From the NCBI GenBank assembly GCA_026708085.1, contig JAPOVP010000189.1, positions 13,834-77,833 of the forward strand: a DNA stretch of 64,000 nucleotides, written 5' to 3'. A program made the translations under genes and the position numbers. The notes below the pieces were generated by a model. That model had not been told where the DNA came from and made no database searches. It worked only from the letters and a program-made list of their open reading frames with translations. Source of the stretch: Caldilineaceae bacterium. Lineage in GTDB: Bacteria > Chloroflexota > Anaerolineae > Caldilineales > Caldilineaceae. Positions 1 through 26,082 of the stretch are shown here, piece by piece. Each line of letters opens with the position of its first letter. Positions within the stretch are counted from its first letter, which is position 1.

Positions 1-1634
<1,634 letters not shown>

Positions 1635-1817
1635 TAGCCTTGTGAAAGCCTGCTCAGGGGAGTCATCTCTGCACGTCATAGAGTCTTGTAGTTCACAACG
1701 CGCCACATTTGAATCACAAGACCAGTTGTGTTCAATAGATGAATCTCAGAGCGCTTTCCGCCCTGCGGCGATGTTGAGCGACTCTGGAAAGGCCAGCCAG
1801 GATGCGCTGGCTCTCCC

Positions 1818-2519
1818 TCAGATATCCAAATCGAGCAGCTCAGGGATTTCATCGACGGCCAGCCCGGTCCACGTCTCCACTTCGGGTCTATGGCTGTCGT
1901 AAACATCACTGAGGTCTGTCCGCTTCAATACCGGCAGCATTCCGAGCGCAGCTGCGCCGGTCAGCTCCTGGTTGCTGCCGTCGCCGACATAGATGCAGAA
2001 CTCTGGCTCCGTTTTCAGCCGCTGGCAAGTGCGTTGATAGATCGCGTCAGCAGGCTTGGCCATGCGTTCGTCGCAGGAATAGACCGGGATGTCGATGCCA
2101 CGGGCCAAAGGAGAACGGGAAAAGAGCTGCGACACTACAGGGCCGCAGTTGCTGATGAGTCCAGTCCTGAAGCCCCTTCGCTTCGGTTCGTCCAAGGTTT
2201 CCATGACCTCCGGTCCTGGCACGAGCGCGTTCGCCATGAATTGGCGGTTGAGCTCAGCGGCCTGCGCGATGCCGCTTGTCTTCGCCGTAACGCCTGTACG
2301 CCGGCAGATATACCACAAGAGATCTTCATAGGTATCGTAGCGTCCCAGGCATCTGTCTTGATAGGTCTCTCCCATCAGCTGCCAGAAGTCTGCATAGGGG
2401 ACACCGACCTCGGCGGCCATCTTTGCATTCACCTGATCGTGCTCGCGGCGCGTGAGACTGCCAACCAGTGTACCGAAGAGATCGAAGAGGACGGCCCTAT
2501 AGCGCACAACATCTTTCAT
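1818..2519 (-). CDS. HAD-superfamily hydrolase (haloacid-dehalogenase-like)
   Basis: 233-aa ORF with motif I-like [10 protein letters not shown] near the N-terminus and [11 protein letters not shown] near the C-terminus. Confidence 0.75.
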
Positions 2520-2645: not shown

Positions 2646-3005
2646 TCAATTCCCATCTGATGTCAGAAGTCGTTGAAGACGGCGACGGCATTTCCGGTGT
2701 TGATTGATTCCCAGGCGGCGATATCCGCCCGGCGCTTTGTTATGTCCGCGCACACCCTGCATAAGGACTTCATGTGTTTGCCGGAGGAGCCTCTGAAACG
2801 GGGGGATTTCCTTCAAGATGTCGATTGCGACATGGAGGGCGAATCGAAAACTCAGTGCCTCGTGAATGTCGACTATCTCCGGAGTGCTCTCATCCGAAAG
2901 GTTTCTTTCCGCCTCGAACGTCAGTAATTCGGTCAGCGTCGTTCGCGTGCCTTCTATACGGCTGGACAGGACAGCCTCTAGCGACGTGAAGGGAGACAGA
3001 ATCAC
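2646..3005 (-). pseudogene. Fic-family protein fragment (N- and C-terminally truncated or frameshifted)
   Basis: The ORF contains LEAVLSSRIEGTRTTL and HEVLMQGVRGHNKAPGGYR, both typical of the region before the Fic core. No HPFxxGNG motif follows, and the tail is arginine-rich out-of-frame sequence. Confidence 0.5.
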
Positions 3006-3038: not shown

Positions 3039-4172
3039 TCAGGACGACGGCTCTCTATTCGCGATGATTGCCTTGATGCGGGCGTTCCGCAAATTCCAGC
3101 GCTGGCCGACCCGTTCAAGGTCGCCCTCGGCGATAACCGTCGCCTGTTCAGCGTGGGCTTTGATGGCGCGCGCGTATTCCGACTGCTCGAGAACGGCATT
3201 CACGGACTGCATCTGTCCGTCGATCTCCGCCTTCAGCCAGATCTTCCCTTCCTCCTGGTCCTCGGTGCGGTTCAGGATATTCACGAAGCCAACCAGGCTC
3301 TCATCGTGCCGTGGACCCCGTTGTCGAAAAGCGCGCGCCGCCTCCCGCAATATGGGCGCATCGTCGTTGGAAAAACGGATGACCTCCCGCGCCCTTACCA
3401 CAGGCCGCGTGCGCGCCCACACAAAGCTGACGTCCGTCGTTGAGAAGGGCATGATCATCGTGTCGAGGGCCTCGCACAGGTTGGCGCTTACACCTTTCTC
3501 CACAACTTCTGCAAAAGCGTCCGCTTCCCCGCCGACTGTGCCTTCGATGGCCTGGCGGACGGCGCTCAGAGAGCTGGCCAGGTGTCTGGTTATCCTGCGT
3601 TCAACCGCGTCGTCCGGCAGCTCTTCTGGACTGAGATCAAATGTCAGCTGCATCGGCGGAGGCACGACCGGGGACAATAGCGTGACAACGAAGCTGCCCT
3701 GTTCGGTCTGCCCCAGGCGCATCTGGCGCAGATATACCCGCGCCTCCCGGTTCGCCCCCGCGCGAAAGAGAGGTTGTGGATTGTAAAAGGAGCAGGCGGC
3801 AGCCAGGATCACGTCGCTCGCGCCGCGCACGAAGTCGACTCCCTCGTCCATGGCAACCGTCCCGTCGTCGCTCTCCGATGCCCGCATCCTGATGACGTCC
3901 CGGTCGGCGTTAACCAGGTCCCGGTAGAGCGCGAGCTCGTCCACACCGGCCGTGCGCGCGAAGATCCCGAGCACTGTTGACACCACGTTGGCATAGTCGC
4001 CGAGATGCTCCGTCCGCGGCAGGATGATCTCCGGCAATCCATCGGCCGCGTACACGTCGGAGTAGTCGCCATACGGCTCCGCCTTGGCCCAGCCCTCCGA
4101 TCGGGCGTACGCCGAAAGCGCCACAGGCGACACCGCCAGCAACGCGTCTCTGTCCTCTATGTTGGCTTTCAT
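3039..4172 (-). CDS. Hypothetical protein (377 aa), translationally coupled to the upstream DUF4365 gene
   Basis: Long clean ORF. Its ATG overlaps the stop of 4169..4669 as ATGA. I recognise no motif. Confidence 0.6.
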   Translation of the reverse strand: MKANIEDRDALLAVSPVALSAYARSEGWAKAEPYGDYSDVYAADGLPEIILPRTEHLGDYANVVSTVLGIFARTAGVDELALYRDLVNADRDVIRMRASESDDGTVAMDEGVDFVRGASDVILAAACSFYNPQPLFRAGANREARVYLRQMRLGQTEQGSFVVTLLSPVVPPPMQLTFDLSPEELPDDAVERRITRHLASSLSAVRQAIEGTVGGEADAFAEVVEKGVSANLCEALDTMIMPFSTTDVSFVWARTRPVVRAREVIRFSNDDAPILREAARAFRQRGPRHDESLVGFVNILNRTEDQEEGKIWLKAEIDGQMQSVNAVLEQSEYARAIKAHAEQATVIAEGDLERVGQRWNLRNARIKAIIANREPSS

Positions 4173-4669
4173 TCGATCCTCCCCTCCCGAGACTGTTCCA
4201 TCAACGTCTGCAGGTTGTCAACGTTGAACAGATTCTGTTCAGGGATAAGGACGGTGACGGACGACCTGTTCTCGGTCCCGTCATGGCCCGTAAGACTAAG
4301 CCAATAGGCGCTGCGCCGCAAGACAAGCGCATCCGGCGTAACTGTCAGCCACTGCGCCTGATCTCTCGGCAGATTGAGCACCACCAGCAAGCGCGGCGTC
4401 TGCGTCGGCTCGCACAGAAGATTGTAATTCTTGGCCCTGAGCCGGTAATGAAAGAAACCTTCAGAAGGTTTGCCCAGGTTGATCGTTGCCTTCAGCTGCA
4501 ATGCGATGGCCGGGCGCATCATTCCACCGGCCTGGATGAGGATATCAACGCCATCTCTGTCCAGCGAATAGTCAGCGGTACTGTACCCGGCGCGAGCCGC
4601 CACGGCCTGGACGTAGACGCGAGAGAGCGCCTCTTCTATGTCGTTGTCGGTAAACAACCCATCGGTCAT
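4169..4669 (-). CDS. DUF4365-like (PD-(D/E)xK nuclease-fold) protein
   Basis: 166 aa. The pattern EEALSRVYVQAVAARAGY...DRDGVDILIQ...ALQLKAT resembles the DUF4365 core (acidic residues, then a QxK strand). Confidence 0.6.
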   Translation of the reverse strand: MTDGLFTDNDIEEALSRVYVQAVAARAGYSTADYSLDRDGVDILIQAGGMMRPAIALQLKATINLGKPSEGFFHYRLRAKNYNLLCEPTQTPRLLVVLNLPRDQAQWLTVTPDALVLRRSAYWLSLTGHDGTENRSSVTVLIPEQNLFNVDNLQTLMEQSREGRIE

Positions 4670-4711
4670 ACAGATTTGCTCTGGCGAAGGCCAAGACGAC
4701 TGCGAAAGGTC

Positions 4712-5533
4712 TTACTCTCCTTCCCTTGTCCTCTCGTAGAAAATCTCAAGAGTCGCCTGATGCGTGATGAAATCAACGAGCGTTAGAGGCTGAACAGTAT
4801 GGCTGACCACCAACCTGCCATGCGACGGGATGAAATTCAACGAAGTATCACCAGGTCCTCTGCCCATGCAGAGCTCATCAAGACGATTTCGAATCTTCAT
4901 TCGGTTTTCTGACTCTTTTCCTTGCCAGTCGATTCCGCCAAGATCGCTAAACACATGGGGCTCCGCCTTAAAGCATGTCTGGCAGAGTTTTATCTTGACT
5001 GCCGGAATGGTGTATGAGCACTGGTGGGGAGGCGGAGACAGTGGCAGCAGATTGGATTGCATTGCGTCCGGTTCATCCCAGTAGTGCTTCATCCCCTCCT
5101 GTCGAAGATCCTCATACTCGATCTCGTTAAACTGAAAGCGCGGATCTCCCGAAAACCTCAGTCCTCTATCTCTGCTGTTTTCCTTGGCCCCACCAGCGTA
5201 AAGATGCGCGGGCTGAACACAACATCGACGATGACACATATGGAGAATATGTTTTCCTATTGTTTCACCCCTCGTCATACTGTATGCCGCGCGATGGGCA
5301 AGATTCGATCCGATCACTCCATAGCCATCCTCATTCAACCCTCTTCTCCAAATGAGACACGGGCCGGCAATCGATATCTGACTGTTTTGCGGAGGGGTAT
5401 AGACGGCGGCGTAATCGGAACTGCTTATTGTTCTTGACGTGCGCCTTTGCCTGGGAAGGACATTCGATCCTCCAATCCACAGCAAAAAATTTCGTTCTTC
5501 ATGGTGCCGATTTGCATTCGGAGATTCCAACAT
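4712..5533 (-). CDS. HNH endonuclease-domain protein
   Basis: CLIWRRGLNEDGYGVIGSNLAHRAAY...HILHMCHRRCCVQPAHLYAGGAKENSRD is an HNH_3-like signature. Confidence 0.7.
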   Translation of the reverse strand: MLESPNANRHHEERNFLLWIGGSNVLPRQRRTSRTISSSDYAAVYTPPQNSQISIAGPCLIWRRGLNEDGYGVIGSNLAHRAAYSMTRGETIGKHILHMCHRRCCVQPAHLYAGGAKENSRDRGLRFSGDPRFQFNEIEYEDLRQEGMKHYWDEPDAMQSNLLPLSPPPHQCSYTIPAVKIKLCQTCFKAEPHVFSDLGGIDWQGKESENRMKIRNRLDELCMGRGPGDTSLNFIPSHGRLVVSHTVQPLTLVDFITHQATLEIFYERTREGE

Positions 5534-5874
5534 TTAACAGCTCCTTGAAGTGGGCCCCGATGCCTGGACCTCAAGCAAAAGCGAATAGTGGAGCAAGCTA
5601 CCCGTATGTGGAGGGCCGGCAGAACTTGAAGCAATCGCGCCACCAGCGCTACCCTCGTCTTTGCCTTGCACGGACAGAGCTTGACTAGCATGCCAGGGCG
5701 ATCCATGTCTCGATTGTAGTTCTGCCTTTCGTCAATTTGGGTTGGCCTGAGCACACTGAACTGCGAACTCCTCGTCGGGAGGTCCTGATAAAGGAAAAAG
5801 TCAGACACCCCGGACAGTCTCATACCAACCTCCAGCCTGCAACATGGTGGCTCTTCCATAAGACGATTCCGAGA

Positions 5875-6582
5875 CTATCCATTCATCCGGTCGTCTATTA
5901 CATCCAAGCAATTCGCCCATGTGAGGTAATGCGTAACCGGCACCTCGTGTAGTCCGTCTGCAGGGTTTTTCCTAACTGTGATGAGCACCCCTCTTCCCCT
6001 TGGGTCTTTCCGATCGGTCACGACAACTATAATCAGGCGGTCCGGGTCAGGTTCTGCGGGCAGGATAGACTCGGCCATACGAACAACCGCGTCCTGGTAT
6101 GGTGGCTGTTCACTGAAGCTCCTCTCTCTGGTTGCTGCTCTCTCTTCCCATCGCCTTAGGCTCTCGGCGTACCTGACGTTGGGGGACTTGCTCGCTCGCT
6201 TCTCCACCTCTCCAAGCAACCCGAAATCAGAGCAGTATGCGCTGCTCAATTCGTCCTCTGACCCGTGGCAATCACAGCCGTCTGCCATGGTCTCACACCA
6301 TGGGTAAGGATCCCCAACCAATCTGAACTCATGCCGATCCCAGCCCGGAGGGAAGGAATCTTTGACAGAATCCCAGTTGGCAATCCTTTCAATGCACTCG
6401 GAAAGCATGGTTGGTTTGTCGAAAGTGCGGTATGGGTATACGGGGACAAGAGGGTTGGGGTCTTGGCCGCCGAAGCGAATGCCGAAGTACGCTATCGCCT
6501 GTTCCATCGACACACATGGAGCCTGAATCTTCACCCACATTTGAGAACTTTCCAACACGATTTCGTAGAGATGGTAGCTCAT
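5875..6582 (-). CDS. Hypothetical protein (235 aa)
   Basis: Clean ORF starting 17 bp downstream of the DUF2971-like gene. No recognised motif. Confidence 0.5.
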   Translation of the reverse strand: MSYHLYEIVLESSQMWVKIQAPCVSMEQAIAYFGIRFGGQDPNPLVPVYPYRTFDKPTMLSECIERIANWDSVKDSFPPGWDRHEFRLVGDPYPWCETMADGCDCHGSEDELSSAYCSDFGLLGEVEKRASKSPNVRYAESLRRWEERAATRERSFSEQPPYQDAVVRMAESILPAEPDPDRLIIVVVTDRKDPRGRGVLITVRKNPADGLHEVPVTHYLTWANCLDVIDDRMNG

Positions 6583-6599
6583 GCGACGTACCTATTGCG

Positions 6600-7751
6600 T
6601 CAGTGACGCGACCCCCCGGTGTTCTGTATCCTGAAGTTGCGGAAACTCGTTCTTCTTTCATACAACCCCTTTACGTTCTCGCCGCGAGCTTCTTTGATTG
6701 CTCGCTCCAAGTCTGCCCTCGAGGTGCGCGGCCCTCGGTAGATTTCCCTGATTGCCTCTGGGGGTATGTCAATGACCTTGACGGGTAGGTTGAATTCGTC
6801 GGTCACCTTGGTATCCCGCGTCCGCTGTAGATCCACTAACAGTCTGACCTCCTGCTCATACGCCCACCCTATCCCCTTCACGAACAACAGCCGTGCCAGG
6901 GACCTCCAGTCCGGGGAGAAGGTTGTAAGATTAACGCTGCACAAGATAGGGCGTCCCAGCACAACCTTGCCTTCCGCGGCGTCACGCTCCATGCTCTCAT
7001 GGTCAACGAAGGCTGCCCGGATCACGTCGTCCCTCGTTGGCACGTACTCAGGAGCTATTTCCAGGTAAGTCACTGTCCTGAGGTCAAAGCCCAACTTAGT
7101 CAAAGCCTCTGTGTCGTAGCCTACGACCACGCCACTGTTTTGAGCGTAATGCGCCCACATCGTTGGAACGAGCGCGTTTCTGCTCAACGAGACCACCCCC
7201 GCCCGAGAGTCCAGGTGCTCCCTGATATAGCCTGCCAGCTCCATATCCCCGTTACTGGTCACCCACAGCTTCGCGAGTTCTCCCTTAGACATGGTGATTC
7301 CCAGGCACTCCTGCAGCTTTACACCCATTGCAGCGCGATAACGGCTGGCGTCATTCTCTCTCCCTCTCATTGGCCCGATACTGCACTCCATAACATCGTT
7401 AAGGGCTGACGGTTGCGTCGCTCTCAAACTCCCCGGCGCCCCCTTGCCGATACGACTCATGGGAATGTACTTGTAAAGGACGCTGGGTATGCCGGTCTTG
7501 CCTTCTACCAACTTGGCCGCGCACTCTCTAGATTGAATCGAGCGAAGCTGCCACGCTGCCACGCTGGGCATTTGCAGCGGTATCGCCCGATGCTCCCTCT
7601 CGTTTAAGGTGAGTATCTCCGCGCACAGCCTCTCAATGTACAGTTCGGCCTCTCGCCTTGCTTGGTCACTATATGCGTGGTGATAACCTTCGACTTGGCA
7701 GTGAAACCCCCTCTTTGCAATTGCCTCAACCATGTCGGCGGGTTTTGTCAT
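6600..7751 (-). CDS. DUF2971-like protein
   Basis: 383 aa with LRATQPSALNDVMEC (the FNDPxE-type motif) and GWAYEQEVRLLV (the ExE-R motif). Confidence 0.55.
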   Translation of the reverse strand: MTKPADMVEAIAKRGFHCQVEGYHHAYSDQARREAELYIERLCAEILTLNEREHRAIPLQMPSVAAWQLRSIQSRECAAKLVEGKTGIPSVLYKYIPMSRIGKGAPGSLRATQPSALNDVMECSIGPMRGRENDASRYRAAMGVKLQECLGITMSKGELAKLWVTSNGDMELAGYIREHLDSRAGVVSLSRNALVPTMWAHYAQNSGVVVGYDTEALTKLGFDLRTVTYLEIAPEYVPTRDDVIRAAFVDHESMERDAAEGKVVLGRPILCSVNLTTFSPDWRSLARLLFVKGIGWAYEQEVRLLVDLQRTRDTKVTDEFNLPVKVIDIPPEAIREIYRGPRTSRADLERAIKEARGENVKGLYERRTSFRNFRIQNTGGSRH

Positions 7752-8087: not shown

Positions 8088-8600
8088 TCACTTCACCCAG
8101 TCCCAAACGCTGATCACTTCAAGGAAAATTATGGCTGCCAGAATCGCATGCAAAACAGCGAACACAACGGGTATCCACAGTTCCTTGCTCGTCACCGCCC
8201 TGTAAACCTTGCCCTTCCCTTCCTCTGCCAATTGCCACTCATACTCGTACATCGCCGCCGGTAAATGCTGCTCGAACTCGTGAATTATGTCGAACTTGAC
8301 GCTGTTCAGATCAGCGTGCGACCTGATAATCGAACGCCATAGCAGGGAAACGGCAATCCCAATCAGGGGAACGGACAGCGCCCAGAGATTCTCGCCGAAT
8401 CCTGCGGATCGAAATCCGTACAACGCGACAAGAGCCGTGTTCAAAGTCAAAAGGTAGTTGCTGGAAGCGACCCGCCGTGCACTCACGTTCTCAGCGGACT
8501 GCACGTAGAGTTTGTACTGCTCTAAAAGATCCTTACCAAAGGTCTCTCCATAAGCCTCTTTCTCCAAATGGATCAGGCGCCGGCCCGGCTGATCAGCCAC
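8088..8600 (-). CDS. Small two-TM membrane protein (effector-like)
   Basis: 170 aa. A soluble N-terminal helix (YKLYVQSAENVSARRVASSNYLLTLN) is followed by hydrophobic helices (ALVALYGF..., LWALSVPLIGIAVSLLW) and a C-terminal TM (LWIPVVFAVLHAILAAIIFL). The start lies 3 nt after the TIR-like gene's stop. Confidence 0.65.
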   Translation of the reverse strand: MADQPGRRLIHLEKEAYGETFGKDLLEQYKLYVQSAENVSARRVASSNYLLTLNTALVALYGFRSAGFGENLWALSVPLIGIAVSLLWRSIIRSHADLNSVKFDIIHEFEQHLPAAMYEYEWQLAEEGKGKVYRAVTSKELWIPVVFAVLHAILAAIIFLEVISVWDWVK

Positions 8601-8603
8601 AAT

Positions 8604-9047
8604 TTATCTTGCCCCTGCGATAAGTTGCTTCAAGTTTTCCCAAGTCCACTTGTATATCTTATCCGTTGATAGTATATTTCGTGGCTTGTTACATGCTTTC
8701 TTTGGGCGACCCCAAAGCAAGAAGTAGGGCTTGTTCTCCTCTCGTGTAATAGCTACTTCCGCGGCAACACCGCTCGCAGTATGGGTGTATTCACCACAGA
8801 TCACGATAGTCAAGTCAGTTCTTCGGATACGATCGCGGACCCTTGCTCTCCAATTGCTGTCGAACGGCTCATGTACCGACCAATCTGCAATATTGAAGGG
8901 TGAGTCTGGATTCTTAGCCTGACCAATCAACGCATTCCGAAGTTCTTCGTCGTGGTCAAAGTCAAAGCTGATGAACGCTCTCTTCATGGCAAACGTCAGA
9001 CGCCTCCTCGAAGTGCTAGTATCGATTTCCACTCGCTGCAGTGACAT
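8604..9047 (-). CDS. TIR-like (DUF1863/MTH538-type) domain protein
   Basis: KRAFISFDFDHDEE...VICGEYTHTASGVAAEVAITREENKPYFLLWG is typical of ThsB-like TIR/DUF1863 proteins. The true start may be the internal ATG at 8987 (MKRAFISF). Confidence 0.7.
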   Translation of the reverse strand: MSLQRVEIDTSTSRRRLTFAMKRAFISFDFDHDEELRNALIGQAKNPDSPFNIADWSVHEPFDSNWRARVRDRIRRTDLTIVICGEYTHTASGVAAEVAITREENKPYFLLWGRPKKACNKPRNILSTDKIYKWTWENLKQLIAGAR

Positions 9048-9086
9048 AACTACTGGTATTTGTCGAAATTGTAGTCCTGTGTCCTC

Positions 9087-10355
9087 TTACCCGGGAGCCC
9101 ATGGTATTAGCACAATCGACTCTTCGTTTTCGCAAATGTTCGCCAAACGATTCACATAGCGCCCTTGATGACCCAGCCTGCTCAGCAACATCAATTCGAA
9201 GTACCATTGACCGAGCTCCCAAGCTTCCAGATAGGCCTTATTGGAAACGTCGCCCAAATCCTTCCGGGGATGAATCAAATTGTTACGAATATCTACAAGT
9301 GTATGTGGGCCAGTATCCCACTTCTTCATAGATTTCAGTTCCTGACAGTTCTTAGGCAGGTCCAGAGGTATCCGCAGTTTACTCAATGCACTGCCGATGA
9401 ATTCCCCGGTACGTTCTCCCTTCTTCCTTTCACGACTAAGCATCAAATAGGCAAACCCTTCCAGAGCCGCCAAGGTCAGAATAGTTCCTATGTATGGGGC
9501 GCTTACGTTACTTTGCAAATACCAATCCAATGCTCGCAGTGTAGAGCCCTTTCTGTTTTCTTGATCCATGAATAGTATCCAGAACTCTGGAAACAGATCA
9601 GGAAGAATTTCATTGTGCCCTCGGGGAAACGCTGAATGGTAGTCCAACCAAGGTTCTGAGTTGTGTGCTCCCCACCTCACCCAAGAAACCTGACTCATTT
9701 CATCTTTACCCCTTACCAAAGCCAAGCTACAGGCCGCCCCGCGGGCAATCGACAGAAAGAATCGTAGGGCTTCAAGAAGCGGCTCGACATTTCTTACGAA
9801 GAAGGTGGTTCCATCCGAGCGAGTGATCGAACCAGTGTACGTGATGCCGTGCCCTCTGGTTCGCCGTAGGGTCTTTACTGCTTCCCCTATATTTCGTACC
9901 CCTGTAATATCTATCGACCAATCTGACGTCTTCAGTATTTCATGAGGGATCCGAACCCATTGCCCGGCATCGCTGATCATTTTGTCCTGCTGTCCATAGA
10001 ACTCCGGCAAGTTGAGGATGGCAAAGGACACTTCTTTAAGCGGCGAACCCTTGTCGATAACGCTTACGGGTTGACTAACAGGAATAAGTATCAGTCTATC
10101 TGGATCAAAATATGGAGCCCCCAAGACGACTTCCAGCTTAGCGCCACTGCGAAGCTCTATCCTCTTGTGACGCTCCCTGCGAGTCAGTTCCGCAAGAGTA
10201 TCGGACTCAAAAACAACCCTTGGAGAAGGGTGGAGTTGGAAAACGACGCTTACAGGAATGTCTTCTCTTTGACCATCAATGTCGATGATCTGTGTTTCCG
10301 CTAGAGTAATCGGCAAGTTTGGCTCAAACTTAGCCGGCCTAATCTGGTCTGTCAT
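9087..10355 (-). CDS. HEPN-motif protein (ApeA-like architecture)
   Basis: 422 aa. The C-terminal region has HTLVDIRNNLIHPRK, an Rx4H HEPN catalytic motif. The large N-terminal domain is unrecognised. Confidence 0.55.
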   Translation of the reverse strand: MTDQIRPAKFEPNLPITLAETQIIDIDGQREDIPVSVVFQLHPSPRVVFESDTLAELTRRERHKRIELRSGAKLEVVLGAPYFDPDRLILIPVSQPVSVIDKGSPLKEVSFAILNLPEFYGQQDKMISDAGQWVRIPHEILKTSDWSIDITGVRNIGEAVKTLRRTRGHGITYTGSITRSDGTTFFVRNVEPLLEALRFFLSIARGAACSLALVRGKDEMSQVSWVRWGAHNSEPWLDYHSAFPRGHNEILPDLFPEFWILFMDQENRKGSTLRALDWYLQSNVSAPYIGTILTLAALEGFAYLMLSRERKKGERTGEFIGSALSKLRIPLDLPKNCQELKSMKKWDTGPHTLVDIRNNLIHPRKDLGDVSNKAYLEAWELGQWYFELMLLSRLGHQGRYVNRLANICENEESIVLIPWAPG

Positions 10356-10522
10356 TGCTATCCTCGTATCGATTTCGTGCTCGCAACTCGCCGAAAATGA
10401 GCTTCGGTGAGGGTAGTCATTGTAGATCTGGGCAATAACTTACAAGAGTCGGCTTTTGTGACTCATCTTGTAGGTCTACAGTAGGGGCAGCATCGCCGAT
10501 ATCTTGCAAGCCCCGGCGACCC

Positions 10523-11668
10523 TCAACTCATTCCTACCAGATCGGCAACAGCTTCGCCCTTGAACCATTGAATGTCTCCATCACATCCCTTAGCGTGCGG
10601 AAGCCGAAATAGAATGTTAGGCAAGGCTGAATCGCTGTGTTTATTCGGATTAAGATAGAGACAGACGGAAGCGTTCTGGAGGTTCCCTAGGTCGACTTTT
10701 TGGAAAATCATGACAGCATCAATCTTACTGTGGCGAGGCCAGACTCCGTCTGGCTCACGGACTATCTCCGGAGGCAGATCCGGTTTTACCACGGAATACA
10801 GAAGCTGCTCTTTGCCGAACAACACGTCCATATCATTGTCGCGGCCGTTGTAGAAAACATCTCGGCAGTTTACTGCCACGACAAAAGGCAAATTCAAGTT
10901 ACCATAGTGGCTAGCCTTTTTCTTCAGCACTCTTCTTACTGGCGTCACGCTGTCTGTCCAAGTAGCGCGATAGGGCTCGATCACGATATCTTGACGCCTG
11001 TTACCCTTCTCTCGACTCTCTGGAGATATAGGATATAGCCAACCCTCTAAACTCCAGTCCCCGCACTCAATCCTTTCAGAAGGAGTTGAATACATCCCTT
11101 TCTCTTCAAACAGCCGCTGAACGTCGACCGGATCGTGAGCCACCAGCAGGTTCTCAAACGGACGGGTCACATCCTTTCCACGCAACGTTGTTTTCAGTTC
11201 ACCCTCCATATGCACGCCAATATAGAAGTAAGGAGAGCAGAGCGTGTTCAAACTATCTATCACGTTTTGTTCATTTGGACTACGAGTAAACGGCCCTGAT
11301 CTTTGGCCCACCATAGTGGCTTCAAGGTACAAGCTCCTCCCTTCGTGACATATCAGAAAATCGGGATGGGTTTTAACACCAGCGATAACCGGATGCGCAC
11401 TTGTTGCAAACCCTAACCGCGTGATCAGTTCATGCAAAAACAGCTCGAAGAAGGCTCCTTCATGCTGCTGATTGCTGTCAGATCGGAACTTCCCCCGTAG
11501 ATCCTTTTGTTCTGAGGCGGGAAATCTCTTGAACCACGTTTCAAGATTGCGCCGGAGGCGAACTCCGTCAGGCCAATCAAATTGATTTAGACATTGAAAC
11601 GACGACTCCGGCATATTTTCAAAACACAGTGGACTCCGCTTGATATTATCAAAAAGGAATTTTGTCAT
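10523..11668 (-). CDS. Hypothetical protein (381 aa), possibly PD-(D/E)xK-like
   Basis: Clean ORF 12 bp downstream of the DUF4238 gene. HEGAFFELFLHELI...HPDFLICHEGRSLYLEATMV resembles a D...ExK-type nuclease core. This is a weak call. Confidence 0.5.
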   Translation of the reverse strand: MTKFLFDNIKRSPLCFENMPESSFQCLNQFDWPDGVRLRRNLETWFKRFPASEQKDLRGKFRSDSNQQHEGAFFELFLHELITRLGFATSAHPVIAGVKTHPDFLICHEGRSLYLEATMVGQRSGPFTRSPNEQNVIDSLNTLCSPYFYIGVHMEGELKTTLRGKDVTRPFENLLVAHDPVDVQRLFEEKGMYSTPSERIECGDWSLEGWLYPISPESREKGNRRQDIVIEPYRATWTDSVTPVRRVLKKKASHYGNLNLPFVVAVNCRDVFYNGRDNDMDVLFGKEQLLYSVVKPDLPPEIVREPDGVWPRHSKIDAVMIFQKVDLGNLQNASVCLYLNPNKHSDSALPNILFRLPHAKGCDGDIQWFKGEAVADLVGMS

Positions 11669-11680
11669 ACCTCTTACTCC

Positions 11681-12559
11681 TTACTTCTCTCCTGTTGCCC
11701 GGAAGTTCCTCGTTTCTTCAGCCAACAGCGACTCGATTAGATCTCGTGAACATCCAGCTATCACCGTGCTCTGCTCGAATACGCTCCTGTTGATTGCCCG
11801 GATGTGTCTGTCGTTTAAGGAAACTATCTTGTCAATCTCTCCAGGACAAGGGGAAACGGCCACGTCGCGAGCGAGCGGTAACCAGAGTTCCACTGTAGGA
11901 TCAGCCAAGTGAGACCGTTCAGGATGCGACATCTTCACGACAGGGTTGCTTCCAATAATGACACCTCGCTTTGGTTTCGGCTTCCGGATTACGGCAACGC
12001 CAATCCGTTTCTCCAAGAAGATTTCAACCCCCTCTTTAGAAAGCGGCTTTTGTACACTCTGGATGCTGATGTTCCTCCAGAGCCTTTCCATCTTTTCTTC
12101 ATCGTGCAGTACTGACAGTTCATGATCAGCAAATGGTCGGAAATGTCCTATGAAATCGATCTCTCTGCGTATTTCTTGAAAAATCTCTTCCTTATGCTTC
12201 TCCCGCATCTCCGGCACGCGTTTGAATTGAACGTAGAGGAATGCCACCCAGATGTCCCTTTCAGCCGGCAACAAGCTGGGAGGGCCTCCCCGCCTGGCAG
12301 TACTCACAATCTTTTCGATCACTGGACTTGCATCGCTCTCAAGACGCGAGAGGAACTCTGTCTCCACGGACGCGTCCCGTGTTCCATCCTCTTCCATCTG
12401 GGTGTAAAGATGTCGCTTAAAGAATAGGTTTTTCGGAGCCCTTTTGCGAATACCTCTGCTTGGATGGCTCTTATCATAGGCGTATAAATTGCCCTCTTCA
12501 TCCGTGAATCGTTTCAACAGCATCCGAGGAATGTAGTGTTGGTCTTTGGGTACACTCAT
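11681..12559 (-). CDS. DUF4238 domain protein
   Basis: The N-terminus, KDQHYIPRMLLKRFTDEEG, matches the HY(I/V)PxxxLxxF start of DUF4238. Confidence 0.7.
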   Translation of the reverse strand: MSVPKDQHYIPRMLLKRFTDEEGNLYAYDKSHPSRGIRKRAPKNLFFKRHLYTQMEEDGTRDASVETEFLSRLESDASPVIEKIVSTARRGGPPSLLPAERDIWVAFLYVQFKRVPEMREKHKEEIFQEIRREIDFIGHFRPFADHELSVLHDEEKMERLWRNISIQSVQKPLSKEGVEIFLEKRIGVAVIRKPKPKRGVIIGSNPVVKMSHPERSHLADPTVELWLPLARDVAVSPCPGEIDKIVSLNDRHIRAINRSVFEQSTVIAGCSRDLIESLLAEETRNFRATGEK

Positions 12560-12729
12560 GGTTTGTTCTCGATTGCTTCACCATCAGTCGATCTCTTGTC
12601 TGCGTTCCACTTCTCTGTCCGCAACTCACCGGGAAGAGGGTTCGGCCGAATAGCGACACTCCAACCGAGGCCCTCTAGCCTACCGAGCGCGGCCTGCTCG
12701 ACATCAGCTTCGATGATAGTCTCTGTCAC
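12556..12729 (-). pseudogene. 5' stub of a second hsdR gene (~40 authentic codons)
   Basis: A GTG overlaps the SIR2 stop (GTGA). It translates as VTETIIEADVEQAALGRLEGLGWSVA...PGELRTE, parallel to the N-terminus of the 1..1634 HsdR ([22 protein letters not shown]). The frame then degenerates and stops on the DUF4238 ATG (ATGA). Confidence 0.6.
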
Positions 12730-14516
12730 CAGTAAATCCTCATGGATTGAGCAGCTCCAACAACAAACTCCCTGAACTGTTGAACCGCCACCGCGCACTC
12801 CTCAGGAGTTTCGCCAAAAAGATCACTTGTTACGTAAAGCGACTCATGTTGGTGCGTGGAAATAGATTCTTCAATCTCTCGTAGAATCCGTTCCTTGGTT
12901 TGGAATCGCCAGACATATCGGCCAAGAGGTGTCCAATACCTATACCATGGTTCCGCCTTCTTATCGTCGTGGTATGCATAGCTCAATGCCATCAGGATTT
13001 CCAGTTTATCGAACAACGAATCAAATTGTTCGCTGTTATACGCTGTGTTGCCAATGTGCTGTCGCATAGCCTCGTGTATCCAATCACTAAGCGGTGTATG
13101 CCGATCCTTCATTCCCTCTAGTATTTGCATCACCTCTCGTGGACTATTGAAAACTAGATGAAAGCCTTTAAATACTCCATTTGGTGTAAGAAGATGTGAG
13201 ACGGCTTTTGTTTCGTCATTCGTTTGAATTTCAGTAGAAAGTATGTGACCCAGGAAGTGAAGCCGATCGGTGGAGAGCGCCCCCAAGCCTAGCGCATAAA
13301 GTACCAGTGTCGCTGGATATCGTTGCAGCCCAAGCCACATTAACTGGCCGTCCAGATGAGGCACTGTGGCCAGCCTTTCTAAAATACGTCGCCAGTTGTC
13401 GTAATGGGCCTCCTTGGCCCACCGACCTCCAGTCGCTGCCATAGCGAGGAGCGTCGAGCAGGCCGCCTCGTAAGCCCGAACGCGCTCTGTTACTGTCTCT
13501 GTATTTGGCTCAGGACTGTTCACGTCAAAAAATGGCGTGGATACTGACTCAACCACTCTCGTGACAGATTCTTCAATCAAATCCGAAAGACGTATTTCGT
13601 AACGCGGCTCAGGAAGGTAACGCTTCAAACTCGCGACTGCAGCCTGGGTCGACAGCGGATGAGGCTGCGAGAACTGTTCGATGGACTCGACCTTCTCCTG
13701 CACATTCTGAAAGAACCTGTCAGCATCCTGAATGTCAATCACCTGGGCTTGACGATGACTTATGAGCCGCTGAGCTTCACCTCTAGGCTGCCCATATGCT
13801 GCCCAGTAGGTAGTAAAACGCCGGGATGGAGCCCGAAACATGGCGTCGCGCAGGGCGGCATCCCATTCCGCTGACCAACCGCACACAATAAGCCCGAACT
13901 CATCGAAGATCCTGTCAAGAAGCTGGTTGAATTCATCCGGGTATTCGCTCAGTTCGGAGGGCGTGTTGCGAATACGAGGATCAAGGTAATCGCCGTGCAG
14001 CTTGATCAAACAATGCTGCGTGTGAACAAGAGGAACCATGCCTTGGATTTGGTCTTCAGAACTTATCACAACTGGCTCAACGCCTGTTTCTTCCAGAGCC
14101 TTCTCTATCAGTCGGTCAAAATTCGTTGTAATGATTACCCTGACGAAACCCTGAGCAACCAGCCACGCAATCGCCTTGTGGGCCGCCGTGGGTTGTTTGA
14201 TGCCTTCTCCACGCTCTTGGTCATTCGGTTCGATGTACGGGTGCAACAGCTTTTGCCGTTCAGCCCGAGCCTTGGCAAGGGTGCCGACGAGCTTCGAGTA
14301 GTCCGGGTCTTCTTCGTACTTCTCACGGTACCACTCCTCTGGGTCAGGTTCAGCTGACTCACCTGCCGCAGCTGCTAACTTACGAATCAGGTCAAGCGTT
14401 ATGTCCCAACCCGTCGGAATCTGAGCAGATCTGGATACACCTGAGCCGATAAGTAGCGCGTATACGCCGCGATTAGCCTGAATCGAAAACGCCAGGGAAT
14501 CGATAGGATCAATCAT
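12726..14516 (-). CDS. SIR2-family (SIR2_2-type) protein
   Basis: 596 aa with ALLIGSGVSRSAQIPTGWDITLDL, VIITTNFDRLIEKALEE and LIKLHGDY. It overlaps the hsdS stop by 8 nt. Confidence 0.8.
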   Translation of the reverse strand: MIDPIDSLAFSIQANRGVYALLIGSGVSRSAQIPTGWDITLDLIRKLAAAAGESAEPDPEEWYREKYEEDPDYSKLVGTLAKARAERQKLLHPYIEPNDQERGEGIKQPTAAHKAIAWLVAQGFVRVIITTNFDRLIEKALEETGVEPVVISSEDQIQGMVPLVHTQHCLIKLHGDYLDPRIRNTPSELSEYPDEFNQLLDRIFDEFGLIVCGWSAEWDAALRDAMFRAPSRRFTTYWAAYGQPRGEAQRLISHRQAQVIDIQDADRFFQNVQEKVESIEQFSQPHPLSTQAAVASLKRYLPEPRYEIRLSDLIEESVTRVVESVSTPFFDVNSPEPNTETVTERVRAYEAACSTLLAMAATGGRWAKEAHYDNWRRILERLATVPHLDGQLMWLGLQRYPATLVLYALGLGALSTDRLHFLGHILSTEIQTNDETKAVSHLLTPNGVFKGFHLVFNSPREVMQILEGMKDRHTPLSDWIHEAMRQHIGNTAYNSEQFDSLFDKLEILMALSYAYHDDKKAEPWYRYWTPLGRYVWRFQTKERILREIEESISTHQHESLYVTSDLFGETPEECAVAVQQFREFVVGAAQSMRIYW

Positions 14517-15828
14517 GCTGACGCTGTCTCCGTGGCGTTACTTGCAGTTTTCCACTGATAAGCATCGGCAGCAGTAAATTGCGCTGGGCAGCTAGAGTTA
14601 TATTGTCGTTTCGTGCCCGCAACAGAATAATTGGCTCAATGACTTCGGTGAATCTGTCCAACAATTCATCTCCCGGCCAAGTGATACTCTCTTCTTGTAA
14701 GAATTGTTTAGTCTGGAAATTCGCGATACCCGTACTTTGCAGTTGGTAGTACCACATCTTTCCTATCGAGTATATGAAATCAAGATGCCCTGACGCAATC
14801 AGCGCTTCCCTCCAACTATGCGGTCTAAACCTCCTGCAAAAGCTAGCACATACGACAGTCCCTTGGAACCTTTCGAGCACGTCCTGTGTAATGAGCACAG
14901 AACGACCTGTTGACTGAGTTGGACTACCTCCAGAGACTTCAATAACAATATCTCCATTTCTGAGCCTTCGTCTCTCTGCTTTTTTCTTCGTTGTGTGTCT
15001 TAGTGGTACTGACCCCGTCCCACCGTTGGAGAGAGAGGACAGATCAGTCCCACGGACAATCGAAACCGGCTCGGTATGTACTCCGTCCGGGGCTTCCTTG
15101 CCCCAGTCACCTCCTATGACATCTTCAAGCAAACTTCCGAATTCCTTCACCTCCCACCCCGCCGGAATCTTCCCCAACTCCGAATCGACCATCCTATCGG
15201 GGAACAACTCGTACAACTCCGCCGGCATCCCCGGCAGCGACTCCCCCCTGCGCCAGCGCCCCTCCATCTTCGCCCGCACCGGCCCGAAATCCACGAACCA
15301 GCACTTGAACAGCGCCCGCGCCATCTCCTCCAGCGTCTCGTTCATCCGCCGGTTCAACTCAATCTTGTCATCAAGCGTGCCGAGGATGTGCGCGATGATG
15401 CGTTGTTCGTGGAGGGGAGGAACGTCAACCAAAGCCTGGTGCAAATGATTGCGGTTCAGGCCCGGAACCGCTGCCTTGTCCGAGTATGCGGAAAAATCAA
15501 TGCTACTTAGAAAATAGGCAATGAAACGGGGATCGTTTCCCTTAAAGTCTCGGACATACAGAGTTGTATTGAGCGGCCAGAAATCCTCCGGCACATAGAA
15601 AACCTTACCCAGCGTCCCGTATCTTCCGGTTACGACTCCCGGCCCTCTGGCCTTAGCCTCTGCGTGAGAATCAGTGATACCAGACGACGAAATCAGAGGA
15701 ATCAAACCCTTGACCCGCTCACGCCGCGGCAGGTCGTACCCTCTCTTTAGTTCTACCACTTCCCCCAAAGTGGCTCGACGCCATTGAACTGTCCCTTCAT
15801 CTCCGTCTGAACCTACTCCTCTTTCCAT
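14509..15828 (-). CDS. hsdS: Type I R-M specificity subunit (HsdS)
   Basis: 439 aa with two target-recognition halves. Typical segments are LGEVVELKRGYDLP and the conserved central/C-terminal helices (LHEQRIIAHILGTLDDKIELNRRMNETLEEMARALFK; AAQRNLLLPMLISGKL). Confidence 0.85.
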   Translation of the reverse strand: MERGVGSDGDEGTVQWRRATLGEVVELKRGYDLPRRERVKGLIPLISSSGITDSHAEAKARGPGVVTGRYGTLGKVFYVPEDFWPLNTTLYVRDFKGNDPRFIAYFLSSIDFSAYSDKAAVPGLNRNHLHQALVDVPPLHEQRIIAHILGTLDDKIELNRRMNETLEEMARALFKCWFVDFGPVRAKMEGRWRRGESLPGMPAELYELFPDRMVDSELGKIPAGWEVKEFGSLLEDVIGGDWGKEAPDGVHTEPVSIVRGTDLSSLSNGGTGSVPLRHTTKKKAERRRLRNGDIVIEVSGGSPTQSTGRSVLITQDVLERFQGTVVCASFCRRFRPHSWREALIASGHLDFIYSIGKMWYYQLQSTGIANFQTKQFLQEESITWPGDELLDRFTEVIEPIILLRARNDNITLAAQRNLLLPMLISGKLQVTPRRQRQHD

Positions 15829-15982: not shown

Positions 15983-17428
15983 TCAAAAAGCTAGTATTTC
16001 CTCCTTGCGGATGTCTGCATGTTCAGGGGAAAAATAGGCCTGGAAAAACTGGAAGTCAGAACGCTCATTCGCTTGACATTTCCTTTGGATGACATCAATT
16101 ATGTTCAGCTTATCCTGATCGGACGTTCTGATTCCAAAGATGATTCCTTTCAAAGAGTCGAACTTATAGGTCAAGGCGCGACGACATTCGTCCAATGATG
16201 AGTCCAACAGTCCATGTAGGATGAGGCGACATTCCTGTTCATATTCCCAGTCTTTATTCTTGATGGAAATATCGCGCTGGAAGTCTTTCCAATGTTCTCC
16301 CCGCCAAGATTCTTCCTCTTTGCCAGAGGTAAAGTGAGTCGCACAGTCCGAAATATGGCCTTTCGCATCCGTATACCAAAGCTTCATGAGTGCGGGAACC
16401 GGCAAGACGCCCATATTACGAAGGAAGTCAATGGTGGCTGGTCTTTCAGAGTAGCTGACATCTTGAAAATACATTGGGGCATAGCTCCAGTGCTCTTTGT
16501 AATCGCCCTTTGCGTTGAACTGCCGACCCGTTAATCGTTTCAATTCCAAGCTACTTCCGTCGGCAGATTCGACGGCCTCAAAGATCAAGCATACCCCTGC
16601 GTGTCCATCGCCGTAATGTGCCCATACGGAGGGATTGTGATAACTCTTCGCAAAACATGCAGCATACCACTCGGGCCAAAGCAGTTTGTCAAGCTGGTTG
16701 ACATAGATGCTGGGAAAATCCAGTAGCAATAGCTGTTGGTTTTTCGTCACCGGATTTGAAAAGGCATCGCGGAAAATGTATTTGTGCTTTAGTCGTTGCC
16801 CCTCTATCAATCGGTACAGAGCTGAAAACATCACATCAGTGCGGTTACCAAGCTCTGCTTCGACCTGCAAAACAAGCTCGACGACACTATTGACTGCCGG
16901 TTTGAATTTACGAAATGTACTTTCAAGTTGGGATAGCTCTTCTTCAGGCGCGAGCCCTTTGTCAGCCCATGCTCTCTGGATTATCGATATGACCTCCAGA
17001 TGGATCAATCTGAGGTAGAACAAGAGTTCATCGCGTCTTACCTCTCGCTTCACAGTAGCAAGCTTCCCGCTCAGCTCTGAAAGGCCTAGCTCCTCGTGGG
17101 TTCTCTTCCATATGTCATCGAAGAGTTCCCCCATTTGGGGAGTTGTCGGCTCGTCCCACCGACCCAATATCGGAATGTGACCGGCTCTTAGCTCTTCCTC
17201 ACTGCCAAGAATTTTGAAAATAACGTAGCTCTGGTGCAGACAAAATACATAATGCTTAAAAAAGTTCGTCCATACAATTTCATCTCCGCGCCACACTAGA
17301 TCCCGAAGACCCTCCATGGGGTCATTAAGCTGCTCCGGGCTGGCAAAGAAGATTGTCTGTCGTTCTAGCTCGCTGGTATCTCCACATATTAGCCGCCTCG
17401 TGCTCCTGAACCTGTAGACCTCTGTCAT
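15983..17428 (-). CDS. DUF2971 domain protein
   Basis: 481 aa with IFFASPEQLNDPMEG and WEYEQECRLIL. Its ATG overlaps the stop of the truncated HepT frame. Confidence 0.7.
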   Translation of the reverse strand: MTEVYRFRSTRRLICGDTSELERQTIFFASPEQLNDPMEGLRDLVWRGDEIVWTNFFKHYVFCLHQSYVIFKILGSEEELRAGHIPILGRWDEPTTPQMGELFDDIWKRTHEELGLSELSGKLATVKREVRRDELLFYLRLIHLEVISIIQRAWADKGLAPEEELSQLESTFRKFKPAVNSVVELVLQVEAELGNRTDVMFSALYRLIEGQRLKHKYIFRDAFSNPVTKNQQLLLLDFPSIYVNQLDKLLWPEWYAACFAKSYHNPSVWAHYGDGHAGVCLIFEAVESADGSSLELKRLTGRQFNAKGDYKEHWSYAPMYFQDVSYSERPATIDFLRNMGVLPVPALMKLWYTDAKGHISDCATHFTSGKEEESWRGEHWKDFQRDISIKNKDWEYEQECRLILHGLLDSSLDECRRALTYKFDSLKGIIFGIRTSDQDKLNIIDVIQRKCQANERSDFQFFQAYFSPEHADIRKEEILAF

Positions 17429-19797: not shown

Positions 19798-21408
19798 TTA
19801 GAAGCCAAGTGCCTTGAGATTATCCGCGATCGCGTCATCCAGCCGGCGCGCCTCCTCCAGCTGCGCCCGCCACTGCGCGGCCAGCTGCCCCATCTTCTCT
19901 TCAAAGGGGATACCGTCGTCCTCCTGCGGCGCTGCGCCTACATACCGGCCCGGCGTCAGCACGTGGCCGTGCTTGCGGATCTCCTCCAGGCCGGCGCTCC
20001 TGCAGAAGCCGGGCACGTCCGCGTACTCGCCCCGCCCCTCCTTGCCCCGCCACGCGTGGTACGTGTCGGCCACGCGGCCGATATCCTCCGCCGACAGGTC
20101 GCGGTGCGCCCGGTCCACCATCTCTCCCAGCTTGCGCGCGTCGATAAACAGCGTCTCCCCGCGCCGCGGCCGTTGCTCCCCGTTGCCGCGGCCGCGCGCA
20201 AGAAACCACAGGCAGGCCGGTATCTGCGTCGAGCGGAACAGCTGGCCCGGCAGCGCAATGATACAGTCCACCAGGTCGGCCTCGATGATCTTCCTGCGTA
20301 TCTCCCCTTCGCTGGACTGGCTCGACGACATCGAGCCGTTCGCCAGCACAAAACCCGCCGTCCCGCGCGGCGCCAGGTGAAACAGGAAATGCTGCACCCA
20401 CGCGAAGTTGGCGTTCCCCACCGGCGGCGCGCCGTACTGCCACCGTTTGTCCTCGCGCAGCCGCTCGCCGCCCCAGTCGGAAACGTTGAACGGCGGATTG
20501 GCCAGAATATAGTCGGCGCGCAGATCGGGGTGGCGGTCGTTGTGGAAGCTGTCGCCGTGCTCGATCAGGCCTTCGATACCCCGTATAGCCAGGTTCATCC
20601 GCGCCATACGCCACGTCGTGTAGTTCGACTCCTGCCCGTAGATCGAGATGTCGCCCCTGGCGCGGCCCCCGTTGCCGTTCCCGCTGGCGTGGGCGCGGAT
20701 GAATGCCAGCGACTGCACGAACATGCCGGCGGAGCCGCAGCACGGGTCGTACACGCGCCCCGTGTAAGGCTCCAGCATCTCCACCAGCAGCTGCACGACG
20801 CTGCGCGGCGTGTAGAATTCGCCCCCCTTCCTGCCCTCGGCCAGGGCGAACTGCTCCAGGAAATACTCATAAACGTGGCCCAGCACGTCGGTCGCCCGCG
20901 CGGCCGCGCCGCCCACCCTGATGTTGCTCACCAGGTCAACCACCTGCCCCAGCCGGTTCTTGTCCAGCGCGGGGCGGGCGTACTCCTTGGGCAGCACGTC
21001 CTTCAGCGCCGCGTTGTCCCGCTCGATCGCGCCCATGGCGTCGTCTATCGCCTGGCCGATCGTGGGTTGCCGCGCCTGCAGCGCCGGCCAGCGCGCCTCC
21101 GGCGGCACCCAGAAGATATTCTGGCCCCGGTACTCGTCCGGGTCCTCGGGGTCCGCGCCCTCGTTTCGCTCCGCCTCCAGCTGCGCGTGGGCCTCCTCGA
21201 ACGCGTCCGAGATGTACTTGAGAAAGATCAGGCCGAGAACCACGTGCTTGTACTCGGCCGCGTCCATGCTCCCCCGTAGCGCGTCAGCCATCCGCCACAG
21301 CTCGGCCCTATAGTCGGCGACGTTCAGGTCGCCCATCGCGCCGGAATCCGGGCTGGCGTCTGTACCTCTCCCCCGCGCCGCCGGCGTCTGATGTCGAGTT
21401 GAAGCCAT
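19798..21408 (-). CDS. hsdM: Type I R-M DNA methyltransferase subunit (HsdM)
   Basis: [32 protein letters not shown] (HsdM N-terminal domain), [12 protein letters not shown] (SAM motif I) and LANPPFN (motif IV). The start is uncertain (21408 or 21333). Confidence 0.9.
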
Positions 21409-21806
21409 AACCGCCTGCCTCCTGCTAACCGTAGTTCGATAGCCTAAAGAGCCACCCAAGAATATTCCCCTTGCCCTGGATGGTCAATTCCTGACTGCTT
21501 ACTGGCTTGCGTGGCTTCTCTGGCGGGCGTGAGAGCGGCAGGACGAGCGTCGAGGGCTGGAATGATCCGGATTTCTGAAGCGCTTAAAAAGCGCGCAGAA
21601 AGGCTGTGGGCGACACTTGAGAGTGCGAGATTGGAGTCTCAACGATCGCGCACCGGCTAAAGGCGCTTCGTGCTCTGTTCAGAACCGACCTCATTCTCCC
21701 AAATGCGCATTATCTTTCCCATTTCGTGGTCTGACGATTGGGGCCAGCCATAGACGTCTGTTTTCTCCTGGCTTCAATCGCTCGCTCATCGTCGTTCTCC
21801 TCTTAT

Positions 21807-25990: not shown

Positions 25991-26082
25991 TGGAAACCCA
26001 GGCCCTCATGCCTGCCGACCCTGTCCCCGTGCTTGCGGGGCTAAACATAACGGGTAGTACAAGCATCGGGGGCAGGTCACCA

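Follow-up and report, generated by a model that had tools for sequence, protein, structure and literature searches.

Gene content of the locus

The stretch of DNA analysed here, hereafter the window, comprises 64,000 nucleotides (nt) of a Caldilineaceae bacterium (GCA_026708085.1, contig JAPOVP010000189.1) and holds a type I restriction-modification (R-M) locus, in which defence-associated genes are nested between hsdM, hsdS and hsdR. The subject of the present analysis is a frame of 57 codons at 12556-12729, on the minus strand, between the SIR2 and DUF4238 genes, hereafter the stub, whose translation is VTETIIEADVEQAALGRLEGLGWSVAIRPNPLPGELRTEKWNADKRSTDGEAIENKP. The initial annotation regarded it as the 5' end of an hsdR gene belonging to a single operon, broken by the insertion of about 11 kb of defence genes. 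The features on which the argument turns are the following, related genomes, loci and contigs being designated by the handles of the analysis (e.g. G007, L042 or C39).

19798..21459, minus strand: hsdM, 553 aa (Pfam N6_Mtase and HsdM_N, E 1e-101)
14509..15828, minus strand: hsdS of the left-hand part, 439 aa (Pfam Methylase_S; conserved regions align to the HsdS of G007)
12726..14516, minus strand: SIR2-family gene, last intact gene of the left-hand part (Pfam SIR2_2; PADLOC PDC-S65, E 1e-216)
12643..12729, minus strand: hsdR-derived half of the stub, codons 1 to ~29, VTETIIEADVEQAALGRLEGLGWSVAIRP (BLASTP E 4e-9; 65/84 DNA positions)
12556..12647, minus strand: hsdS-derived half of the stub, last ~28 codons, (P)NPLPGELRTEKWNADKRSTDGEAIENKP and the stop codon (BLASTP E 8e-8 against the C-terminus of G007 HsdS)
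11681..12559, minus strand: DUF4238 gene, first intact gene of the right-hand part (Pfam DUF4238, E 2e-30)
8088..11668, minus strand: p381, p422, ThsB-like TIR and 8xMP genes (tblastn to G007 locus L013, in the same order; Pfam)
1636..1810, minus strand: conserved hsdR leader, ~170 nt, with palindromic motifs TGAACACAA..TTGTGATTCA (nine-locus alignment)
1..1635, minus strand: 5' half of hsdR, the gene continuing beyond the window start (Pfam HSDR_N, SWI2_SNF2/ResIII)

The hsdR gene found ~11 kb downstream of the stub is intact: the complete open reading frame (ORF) encodes 1052 aa (contig C39:12310-15468), displays IIELK, GSGKS and DEAH, and its product is 82-85% identical to the full-length HsdR of relatives. 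With hsdM, hsdS and a full-length hsdR, the locus holds the genes of a complete type I R-M system. All the cargo genes lie on the minus strand, the same as the hsd genes, and several of them are assigned to defence-associated families by PADLOC (PDC-S65, PDC-S31, PDC-M02A/B) and Pfam (ThsB_TIR, SIR2_2).

Make-up of the stub

At both ends, the stub overlaps its neighbours as first described, namely at its GTG (12729-12727), which overlaps the SIR2 TGA (12728-12726) as GTGA, and at its TGA (12558-12556), which overlaps the DUF4238 ATG (12559-12557) as ATGA. BLASTP against the N-terminus encoded at 1-1635 aligns stub residues 4-33 to HsdR residues 8-37 with 19/30 identities (E 4e-9), and a tblastn search of the whole 6.2-Mb genome with the stub finds hsdR (E 1.8e-5), so that the hsdR 5' remnant is real. 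The DNA identity of roughly 75%, initially estimated by eye, agrees with the aligned values, that is 65/84 positions (~77%) between stub nt 1-87 and the 5' end of the window hsdR, and 72% over stub nt 22-93.

The parallel was thought to extend over HsdR residues ~8-45; it holds for residues 8-37 but not beyond, as the HsdR likeness ceases at about codon 29-30 and the part ending in PGELRTE is HsdS-derived. Stub residues 27-56 actually match the last 30 residues of G007 HsdS (439-468 of 469, E 8e-8, BLASTP). When relatives were searched at the DNA level, the 87 nt that precede the DUF4238 ATG proved homologous to the region upstream of DUF4238 in G007 (E 2.6e-35), where the homology runs unbroken from the hsdS tail into DUF4238 and where the stop of a 469-aa hsdS overlaps the DUF4238 start in an ATGA arrangement identical to that of the window. 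The stub frame thus dies on the DUF4238 start codon because its stop is the native stop of hsdS. In a three-way DNA alignment, stub nt 1-87 track hsdR and nt 83-174 track the hsdS tail; the sole sequence shared at the partner switch is the 4-nt GCCG (window ~12643-12647), and the joint connects hsdR codon ~29 to hsdS codon about -29. These alignments show the stub to be an in-frame hsdR'-'hsdS chimera.

A Pfam search of the 57-aa stub gave no domain, including no HSDR_N (PF04313) nuclease domain with its PD-(D/E)xK core, and the frame, with only 57 codons and a second half that is HsdS-derived, is devoid of the motifs of the SF2 helicase/translocase (ResIII, SWI2_SNF2). The conserved leader of ~170 nt is absent upstream of the stub. 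A recent duplication of the resident hsdR 5' end was also considered as the origin of the stub and ruled out, given the 72% identity and the missing leader.

Gene order in relatives and the proposed parent operons

In G007, the genes stand in the order hsdM, primase-like gene, hsdS, DUF4238, p381, p422, TIR, 8xMP, p247, Fic, conserved leader and hsdR. From the hsdS tail onward, the window keeps this order with DUF4238, p381, p422, TIR, 8xMP, a Fic remnant, the leader and hsdR, the aa identities to G007 (L013, tblastn) being 61% for p381, 69% for p422, 87% for TIR and 75% for 8xMP. As for the hsd products, HsdM is 84% identical, HsdR is 82% identical over the N-terminal 545 aa and 84% over its full length, and the central conserved region of HsdS is nearly identical while the target-recognition domains differ. 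With ~84% identity to G007 for HsdM as well as HsdR, both parent operons belong to one type I family.

Regarding the left-hand side, SIR2 is followed in G001 and G013 by a 7-codon hsdR remnant, whose first 21 nt are shared with the stub, and the metagenome-assembled genome (MAG) L015 exhibits the minimal order hsdM-hsdS-SIR2-hsdR, the one locus found when searching genome contigs with SIR2. The overlap of SIR2 with the start of hsdR is, to judge from these arrangements, ancestral. No hsdR remnant was present in the regions downstream of nine other SIR2 homologues.

Very probably, the stub is a recombination scar left by the fusion of two type I R-M operons from one family. The left parent would have contributed hsdM..hsdS-SIR2-hsdR', where SIR2 would once have separated hsdS from hsdR, the stop and start codons of neighbouring genes overlapping, and the right parent 'hsdS-DUF4238-p381-p422-TIR-8xMP..Fic-leader-hsdR, of the type still intact in G007, the joint being made by illegitimate recombination at the 4-nt microhomology GCCG. 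The product would be a composite operon with one hsdM, one hsdS and one intact hsdR behind its own leader, in which the cargo of both parents is summed. Later events would have brought more cargo and more scars, that is insertion sequence (IS)-end relics, the Fic remnant with HAD and a HepT remnant.

The explanation first put forward, whereby a single hsdM-hsdS-SIR2-hsdR operon would have been split by ~11 kb of cargo inserted in the 5' end of its hsdR, with cassette exchange through homology between the two hsdR 5' ends, accounts for the direct orientation of these two ends, for the variation of the cargo among genomes and for the leap in identity to L042 at the stub start (see below). It is nonetheless improbable, being contradicted by the origin of the distal half of the stub, which derives from the 3' end of a second hsdS; the gene order from this tail to hsdR is that of a complete G007-type operon. 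Besides, an insertion would leave hsdR without its first codons, yet the downstream hsdR is complete with its own leader. The identity between the two 5' ends is only 72-77% and no exact match exceeds 10 nt, which does not suit recombining homologies, the more so as the stub lacks the leader.

If two operons were joined as proposed, both parents being of one family, the hsdR that was kept should suit the hsdM and hsdS that were kept, and we infer from the sequences that this distant hsdR would still serve the pair. For annotation purposes, an hsdR located 11 kb away from hsdM and hsdS can still be theirs.

Reality, age and decay of the junction

The junction is crossed without any difference by a contig of 10,089 nt from the source sample, and contig X2 (2749 nt), from an independent sponge-metagenome sample and study, spans 12329-14000 with zero differences. 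In addition, the diverged relative L042, whose SIR2 is 76% identical at the aa level, carries the same junction, AIRPNPIPGELRT. A metagenome mis-assembly joining two loci could have been feared for a sponge-metagenome MAG of 193 contigs with 7.5% estimated contamination, in which hsd fragments are repeated; against the two error-free contigs, the recurrence of the junction in L042 and a joint of 4 shared nt, too few to mislead an assembler, its probability is next to nil.

The event is old, since it is shared with L042 whose SIR2 is only 76% identical. In L042, a 1-nt insertion in the stub terminates the frame 19 nt before DUF4238, and the variant X7 has an additional A at 12579. Between the window and L042, the substitutions at the first, second and third codon positions amount to 3/6/4 in the stub, compared with 81/70/154 in SIR2 and 20/14/38 in DUF4238; because its substitutions show no codon-position bias, the stub is an old, neutrally drifting relic. 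As far as its sequence tells, the frame would be non-functional, an ordinary but informative pseudogene scar.

A second scar and a possible translational bridge

Immediately downstream of hsdS, G007 has a homologue of the DUF4238 gene; in G008, the homologue comes after a separate hsdR'-'hsdS scar. There, a different embedded gene, p641, is followed by hsdR nt 1-162 (codons 1 to ~54), an hsdS tail and DUF4238; the hsdR part is 86% identical to the hsdR of G008 itself, and the joint lies at a CTGCG(C/T)GAC (LRD) motif common to the hsdR 5' and hsdS 3' ends. This frame was later broken by an 11-nt tandem duplication. The G008 joint results from an independent event, since its breakpoints and alleles differ from those of the window. 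In both cases, the joint falls at a short microhomology (GCCG and CTGCG(C/T)GAC, respectively) between otherwise unrelated sequences.

The overlaps at both ends of the stub (GTGA and ATGA) bring up the idea of a translational bridge, where ribosomes ending SIR2 would restart at the GTG, read 57 codons and stop on the ATGA, thereby coupling DUF4238 to the upstream operon. No strong Shine-Dalgarno sequence precedes DUF4238, no terminator-like site is found between SIR2 and DUF4238, both independent joints were originally in frame, and a transposase fragment in G010 likewise reads into the ATGA. However, the frame is broken before the ATG in L042 (+1 nt), X7 (+A) and G008 (11-nt duplication), the stub lacks codon-position bias, and nothing but an IS-end relic precedes DUF4238 in G011 and L051, which makes such a function hardly probable.

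Probable route of recombination

Homology-facilitated illegitimate recombination, reportedly described by de Vries and Wackernagel in 2002 in naturally transformable bacteria, relies on a homology anchor on one side and a GC-rich microhomology of a few bases on the other side, the recipient DNA in between being lost. It is the most likely route for the joining of the two operons, with an anchor in the conserved hsdR or hsdM; as in this process, the GCCG and CTGCGYGAC joints lie near conserved hsdR or hsdM. Unlike homology-facilitated illegitimate recombination proper, the process is here, in a sponge symbiont, read from its product alone, and a deletion between two once-adjacent operons is an alternative that would give the same product and fits equally well. 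Both routes would have cost the locus the greater part of one hsdR and of one hsdS, together with one hsdM. Conserved hsdR and hsdM could be the anchors; no donor molecule or intermediate was found in the relatives or in the protein searches. Among 5.8 billion proteins searched with the stub N-terminus grafted onto HsdR, nothing came closer than the clade of the window's own hsdR, the 10 borrowed residues partly biasing this query, and a plasmid collection searched with the stub region gave no match.

Several points weigh against the joining of two operons as reconstructed above. A tandem pair of the parent operons was found in none of the genomes searched, and neither was an intact SIR2-hsdR operon with the stub allele, so that either imported DNA or a deletion may have been the route. 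The full-length alleles of the genus share only 53-72% identity with the hsdR part of the stub, which implies either another source lineage or strong decay. Furthermore, the window and G008 joints were both originally in frame and read into the ATGA of DUF4238, for which the chance is 1 in 9, and this hints at selection for translational coupling at the time the joints formed.

Another route can be conceived, in which the cargo would excise as a circle via an hsdR 5'/hsdS 3' joint and reintegrate through one crossover in the hsdR 5' end of a different type I operon, giving a stub, the cargo and a complete hsdR. It predicts exactly the observed architecture, and two independent hsdR'-'hsdS joints (window and G008) are available, both at short motifs shared by the gene ends. 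Still, it is very improbable: the cargo ORFs contain no integrase or recombinase domain (Pfam), the only border repeats being IS-end relics and not attachment-site repeats, there are no circle junction reads, and the homology for integration would be shorter than 100 nt at ~75% identity. Moreover, the stubs of other genera have unrelated tails and those of G026 are cut by an IS, while the SIR2-linked start of the stub is allowed by the circle and by simple end-joining alike.

Under the favoured joining of two operons at a microhomology, the scar would document one route for the entry of defence genes into type I R-M operons, which is otherwise unexplained, namely a 4-nt microhomology splice by which one hsd set is kept and the cargo is pooled. 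More speculatively, and with considerably more doubt than confidence, type I R-M systems may repeatedly have acquired defence genes through operon fusion at microhomologies between hsdR 5' and hsdS 3' ends, and in-frame joints into the next ATGA may be favoured as they keep the cargo translationally coupled; the two DUF4238 joints would be the first traces of this route.

Cargo turnover

Between hsdS and hsdR, the cargo is different in every genome examined. The HsdR of the window, L051 and L052 are 97% identical, yet their cargo is unlike, i.e. the turnover of the cargo is much faster than the divergence of hsdR. L051 (GCA_028819015.1, JAPPMS010000058.1) has hsdS, p769, an IS relic, DUF4238, an 8xMP fragment, a reverse transcriptase, a YopA-like gene and PIN, whereas L052 (ENA ERZ25069580) has an IS3 transposase, p369, p377 and HAD upstream of hsdR. 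A C-terminal remnant of hsdR also lies 1.9 kb downstream of hsdR in L052. Compared with L042, the window gains the TIR-8xMP pair (7998-9085), and DUF2971-p235 replaces a gene of 454 aa. The downstream boundary of the TIR-8xMP pair adjoins an IS-end relic.

In a sliding comparison with L042, the C-terminal third of SIR2 (~12750-13300) has 60-70% identity and the rest of the gene 85-94%, and the identity leaps to 94% exactly at the stub start and stays so onward. This divergent third, delimited by the stub start, has either been swapped or is a fast-evolving domain. The leap itself is consistent with a mosaic boundary, where homologous exchange may have used the conserved relic as an arm, and it is the one observation that fits conserved gene ends as homology arms. 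These comparisons support the view of the type I R-M locus as a hotspot, in which hsdM, hsdS and hsdR are conserved while the cargo between them varies. The initial annotation had likewise considered the locus as a hotspot, with the gene ends mediating cassette replacement; the former is upheld by the differences among relatives, but the joint itself is illegitimate, at GCCG, and not a crossover between hsd homologies.

Comparison with known systems

The embedding of defence genes in type I R-M, BREX, DISARM and Hma systems is already published (Payne et al., bioRxiv 10.1101/2024.01.29.577857). As in those systems, the window has same-strand defence genes nested between hsdM, hsdS and hsdR, and three of its cargo units match PADLOC candidate models of the same study, i.e. 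PDC-S65 (SIR2), PDC-S31 (DUF2971) and PDC-M02A/B (DUF4365 and p377). Systems with pseudogenes were left out of that survey, in which only the idea of a 'genomic sink' was offered for the origin of embedding (Payne et al., bioRxiv 10.1101/2024.01.29.577857); unlike the systems reported there, the window would possess a junction scar recording one concrete route, the fusion of two operons.

The interval between hsdS and hsdR has also been termed a 'potential recombination hotspot', in the case of DarTG2 in enteropathogenic Escherichia coli (EPEC) (RptR paper, PMC12255303). As in these loci, the cargo of the window lies between hsdS and hsdR and differs by genome at the same position. Unlike them, no RptR-type TAGCTA repeats are seen in the window, where an hsdR leader with TGAACACAA/TTGTGATTCA palindromes is present instead; no gene-end scars are reported in that study (PMC12255303). 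A truncated hsdR beside mobile elements in the staphylococcal cassette chromosome (SCC) region is similarly an hsdR fragment left as a rearrangement relic, but those SCC remnants are plain truncations, unlike the stub of the window, which is an in-frame hsdR'-'hsdS chimera inside a still complete operon. The locus reveals no new kind of system, its addition being a readable junction that records one route of embedding. It also serves as a warning for annotation, since a short ORF labelled 'hypothetical' among embedded defence genes can be a chimera of gene ends.

The hsdR leader

The leader contains the motifs TGAACACAA and TTGTGATTCA, separated by 6 nt, and then again TTGTGAAC. It is common to the hsdR genes and hsdR stubs of nine loci, whatever the gene upstream, and this conservation across genomes suggests that hsdR has its own control region; the leader may be an operator or promoter region. 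An Rfam scan of 1-25000 gave no family, and scans for sigma-70 promoters and terminators around the stub and the hsdR leader gave nothing above background.

Additional cargo and neighbouring genes

The remaining features between 8xMP and the leader are the following.

3039..7751, minus strand: extra cargo, i.e. DUF2971 (PDC-S31), p235, an HNH-like gene, and DUF4365 with p377 (PDC-M02A/B) (Pfam, PADLOC)
2646..3005, minus strand: Fic remnant, second scar (Pfam Fic_N positions 27-81 of 82)
1818..2519, minus strand: HAD hydrolase gene, an insertion flanked by the Fic remnant and the hsdR leader (Pfam Hydrolase/HAD_2)

The extra cargo at 3039..7751 has no match in the G007 locus L013 and is partly replaced in L042. 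The HNH_3 / His-Me finger (homing-endonuclease-like) gene, at 4712-5533, gives a weak HNH match and is 90% identical in L042; such a gene in the cargo could promote local double-strand breaks and gene conversion. The Fic remnant has no Fic catalytic domain (Pfam). In G007, G008 and G013, Fic is full length (376-409 aa, Pfam) and separates the cargo from hsdR; it is the immediate upstream neighbour of hsdR in G007 and G008. The arrangement p377-HAD-hsdR recurs in L052. That p377, the PDC-M02B partner, also stands before hsdR in G001 and G007 was considered and ruled out, as the genes there do not match p377 and that of G007 is Fic (Pfam). The cargo listed in the initial annotation is largely borne out by Pfam and PADLOC, i.e. 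DUF4238, ThsB-TIR, 8xMP, two DUF2971 genes, a weak HNH, DUF4365 with its 377-aa partner, HAD and the Fic_N stub, with the exception of an 'ABC-permease stub' at 2527-2691, which has no Pfam match.

An MNT gene and the HepT remnant were recognised from the translations by eye. The HepT (DUF86) 5' remnant follows MNT at 17425-17640, its frame extending as far as the ATGA at which the 481-aa DUF2971 gene starts, and is a scar of the same style as the hsdR stub. Just upstream of hsdM, the window has a Toprim/DUF5906 primase-like gene; the primase-like gene of G007 (BT4734-like_N, PriCT_2, D5_N; L013 4758-7529) lies within the operon, flanked by hsdM and hsdS.

Other hsd remnants and flanking regions

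A class-wide survey indicated that hsdR stubs are common, those of other genera having unrelated tails, and an HsdS-like tail was found in 0/8 of the stubs inspected for further hsdR'-'hsdS chimeras. The decay of hsdR is thus common, and the hsdR'-'hsdS chimera is so far confined to two lineages (window/L042 and G008). Decayed relics of leader plus stub occur after PDC-M02 in G023, G025 and G028. G026 has an hsdR interrupted by an IS with rve-type transposase fragments, and this truncated copy occurs twice; the two stubs of this genome were considered as a cassette array, which was ruled out as they are IS-truncated copies within a 3.5-kb duplication. The genome under study itself contains an hsdR 5' stub after vapBC (C38:92484-92687), the TTG of which overlaps the vapC stop, an hsdR 3' fragment (C131:14562-14954; 76% identical, 2 stops) and an hsdM 3' fragment (C18:39448-39594). 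vapC also precedes hsdR in G011 and G003.

IS-end relics at 7822-7888 and 21702-21768 correspond to a terminal inverted repeat with the core GCCCCAATC.T..GACCACGAAATGGGAA and face inward around the block from hsdM to 8xMP. This repeat family has ~20 copies in the genome, six of which are near a second type I R-M locus on contig C144, and the same IS end bounds the rve-transposase fragments that cut hsdR in G026. The R-M locus lies within a larger defence island: beyond hsdR, outside the window (C39:1-12300), are encoded an LRR and GIY-YIG protein, a ThiF-family protein, an SMC-like ATPase and a pPIWI-associated nuclease domain protein, and the other flank (window 25174-30370) holds GmrSD and a transposase fragment.

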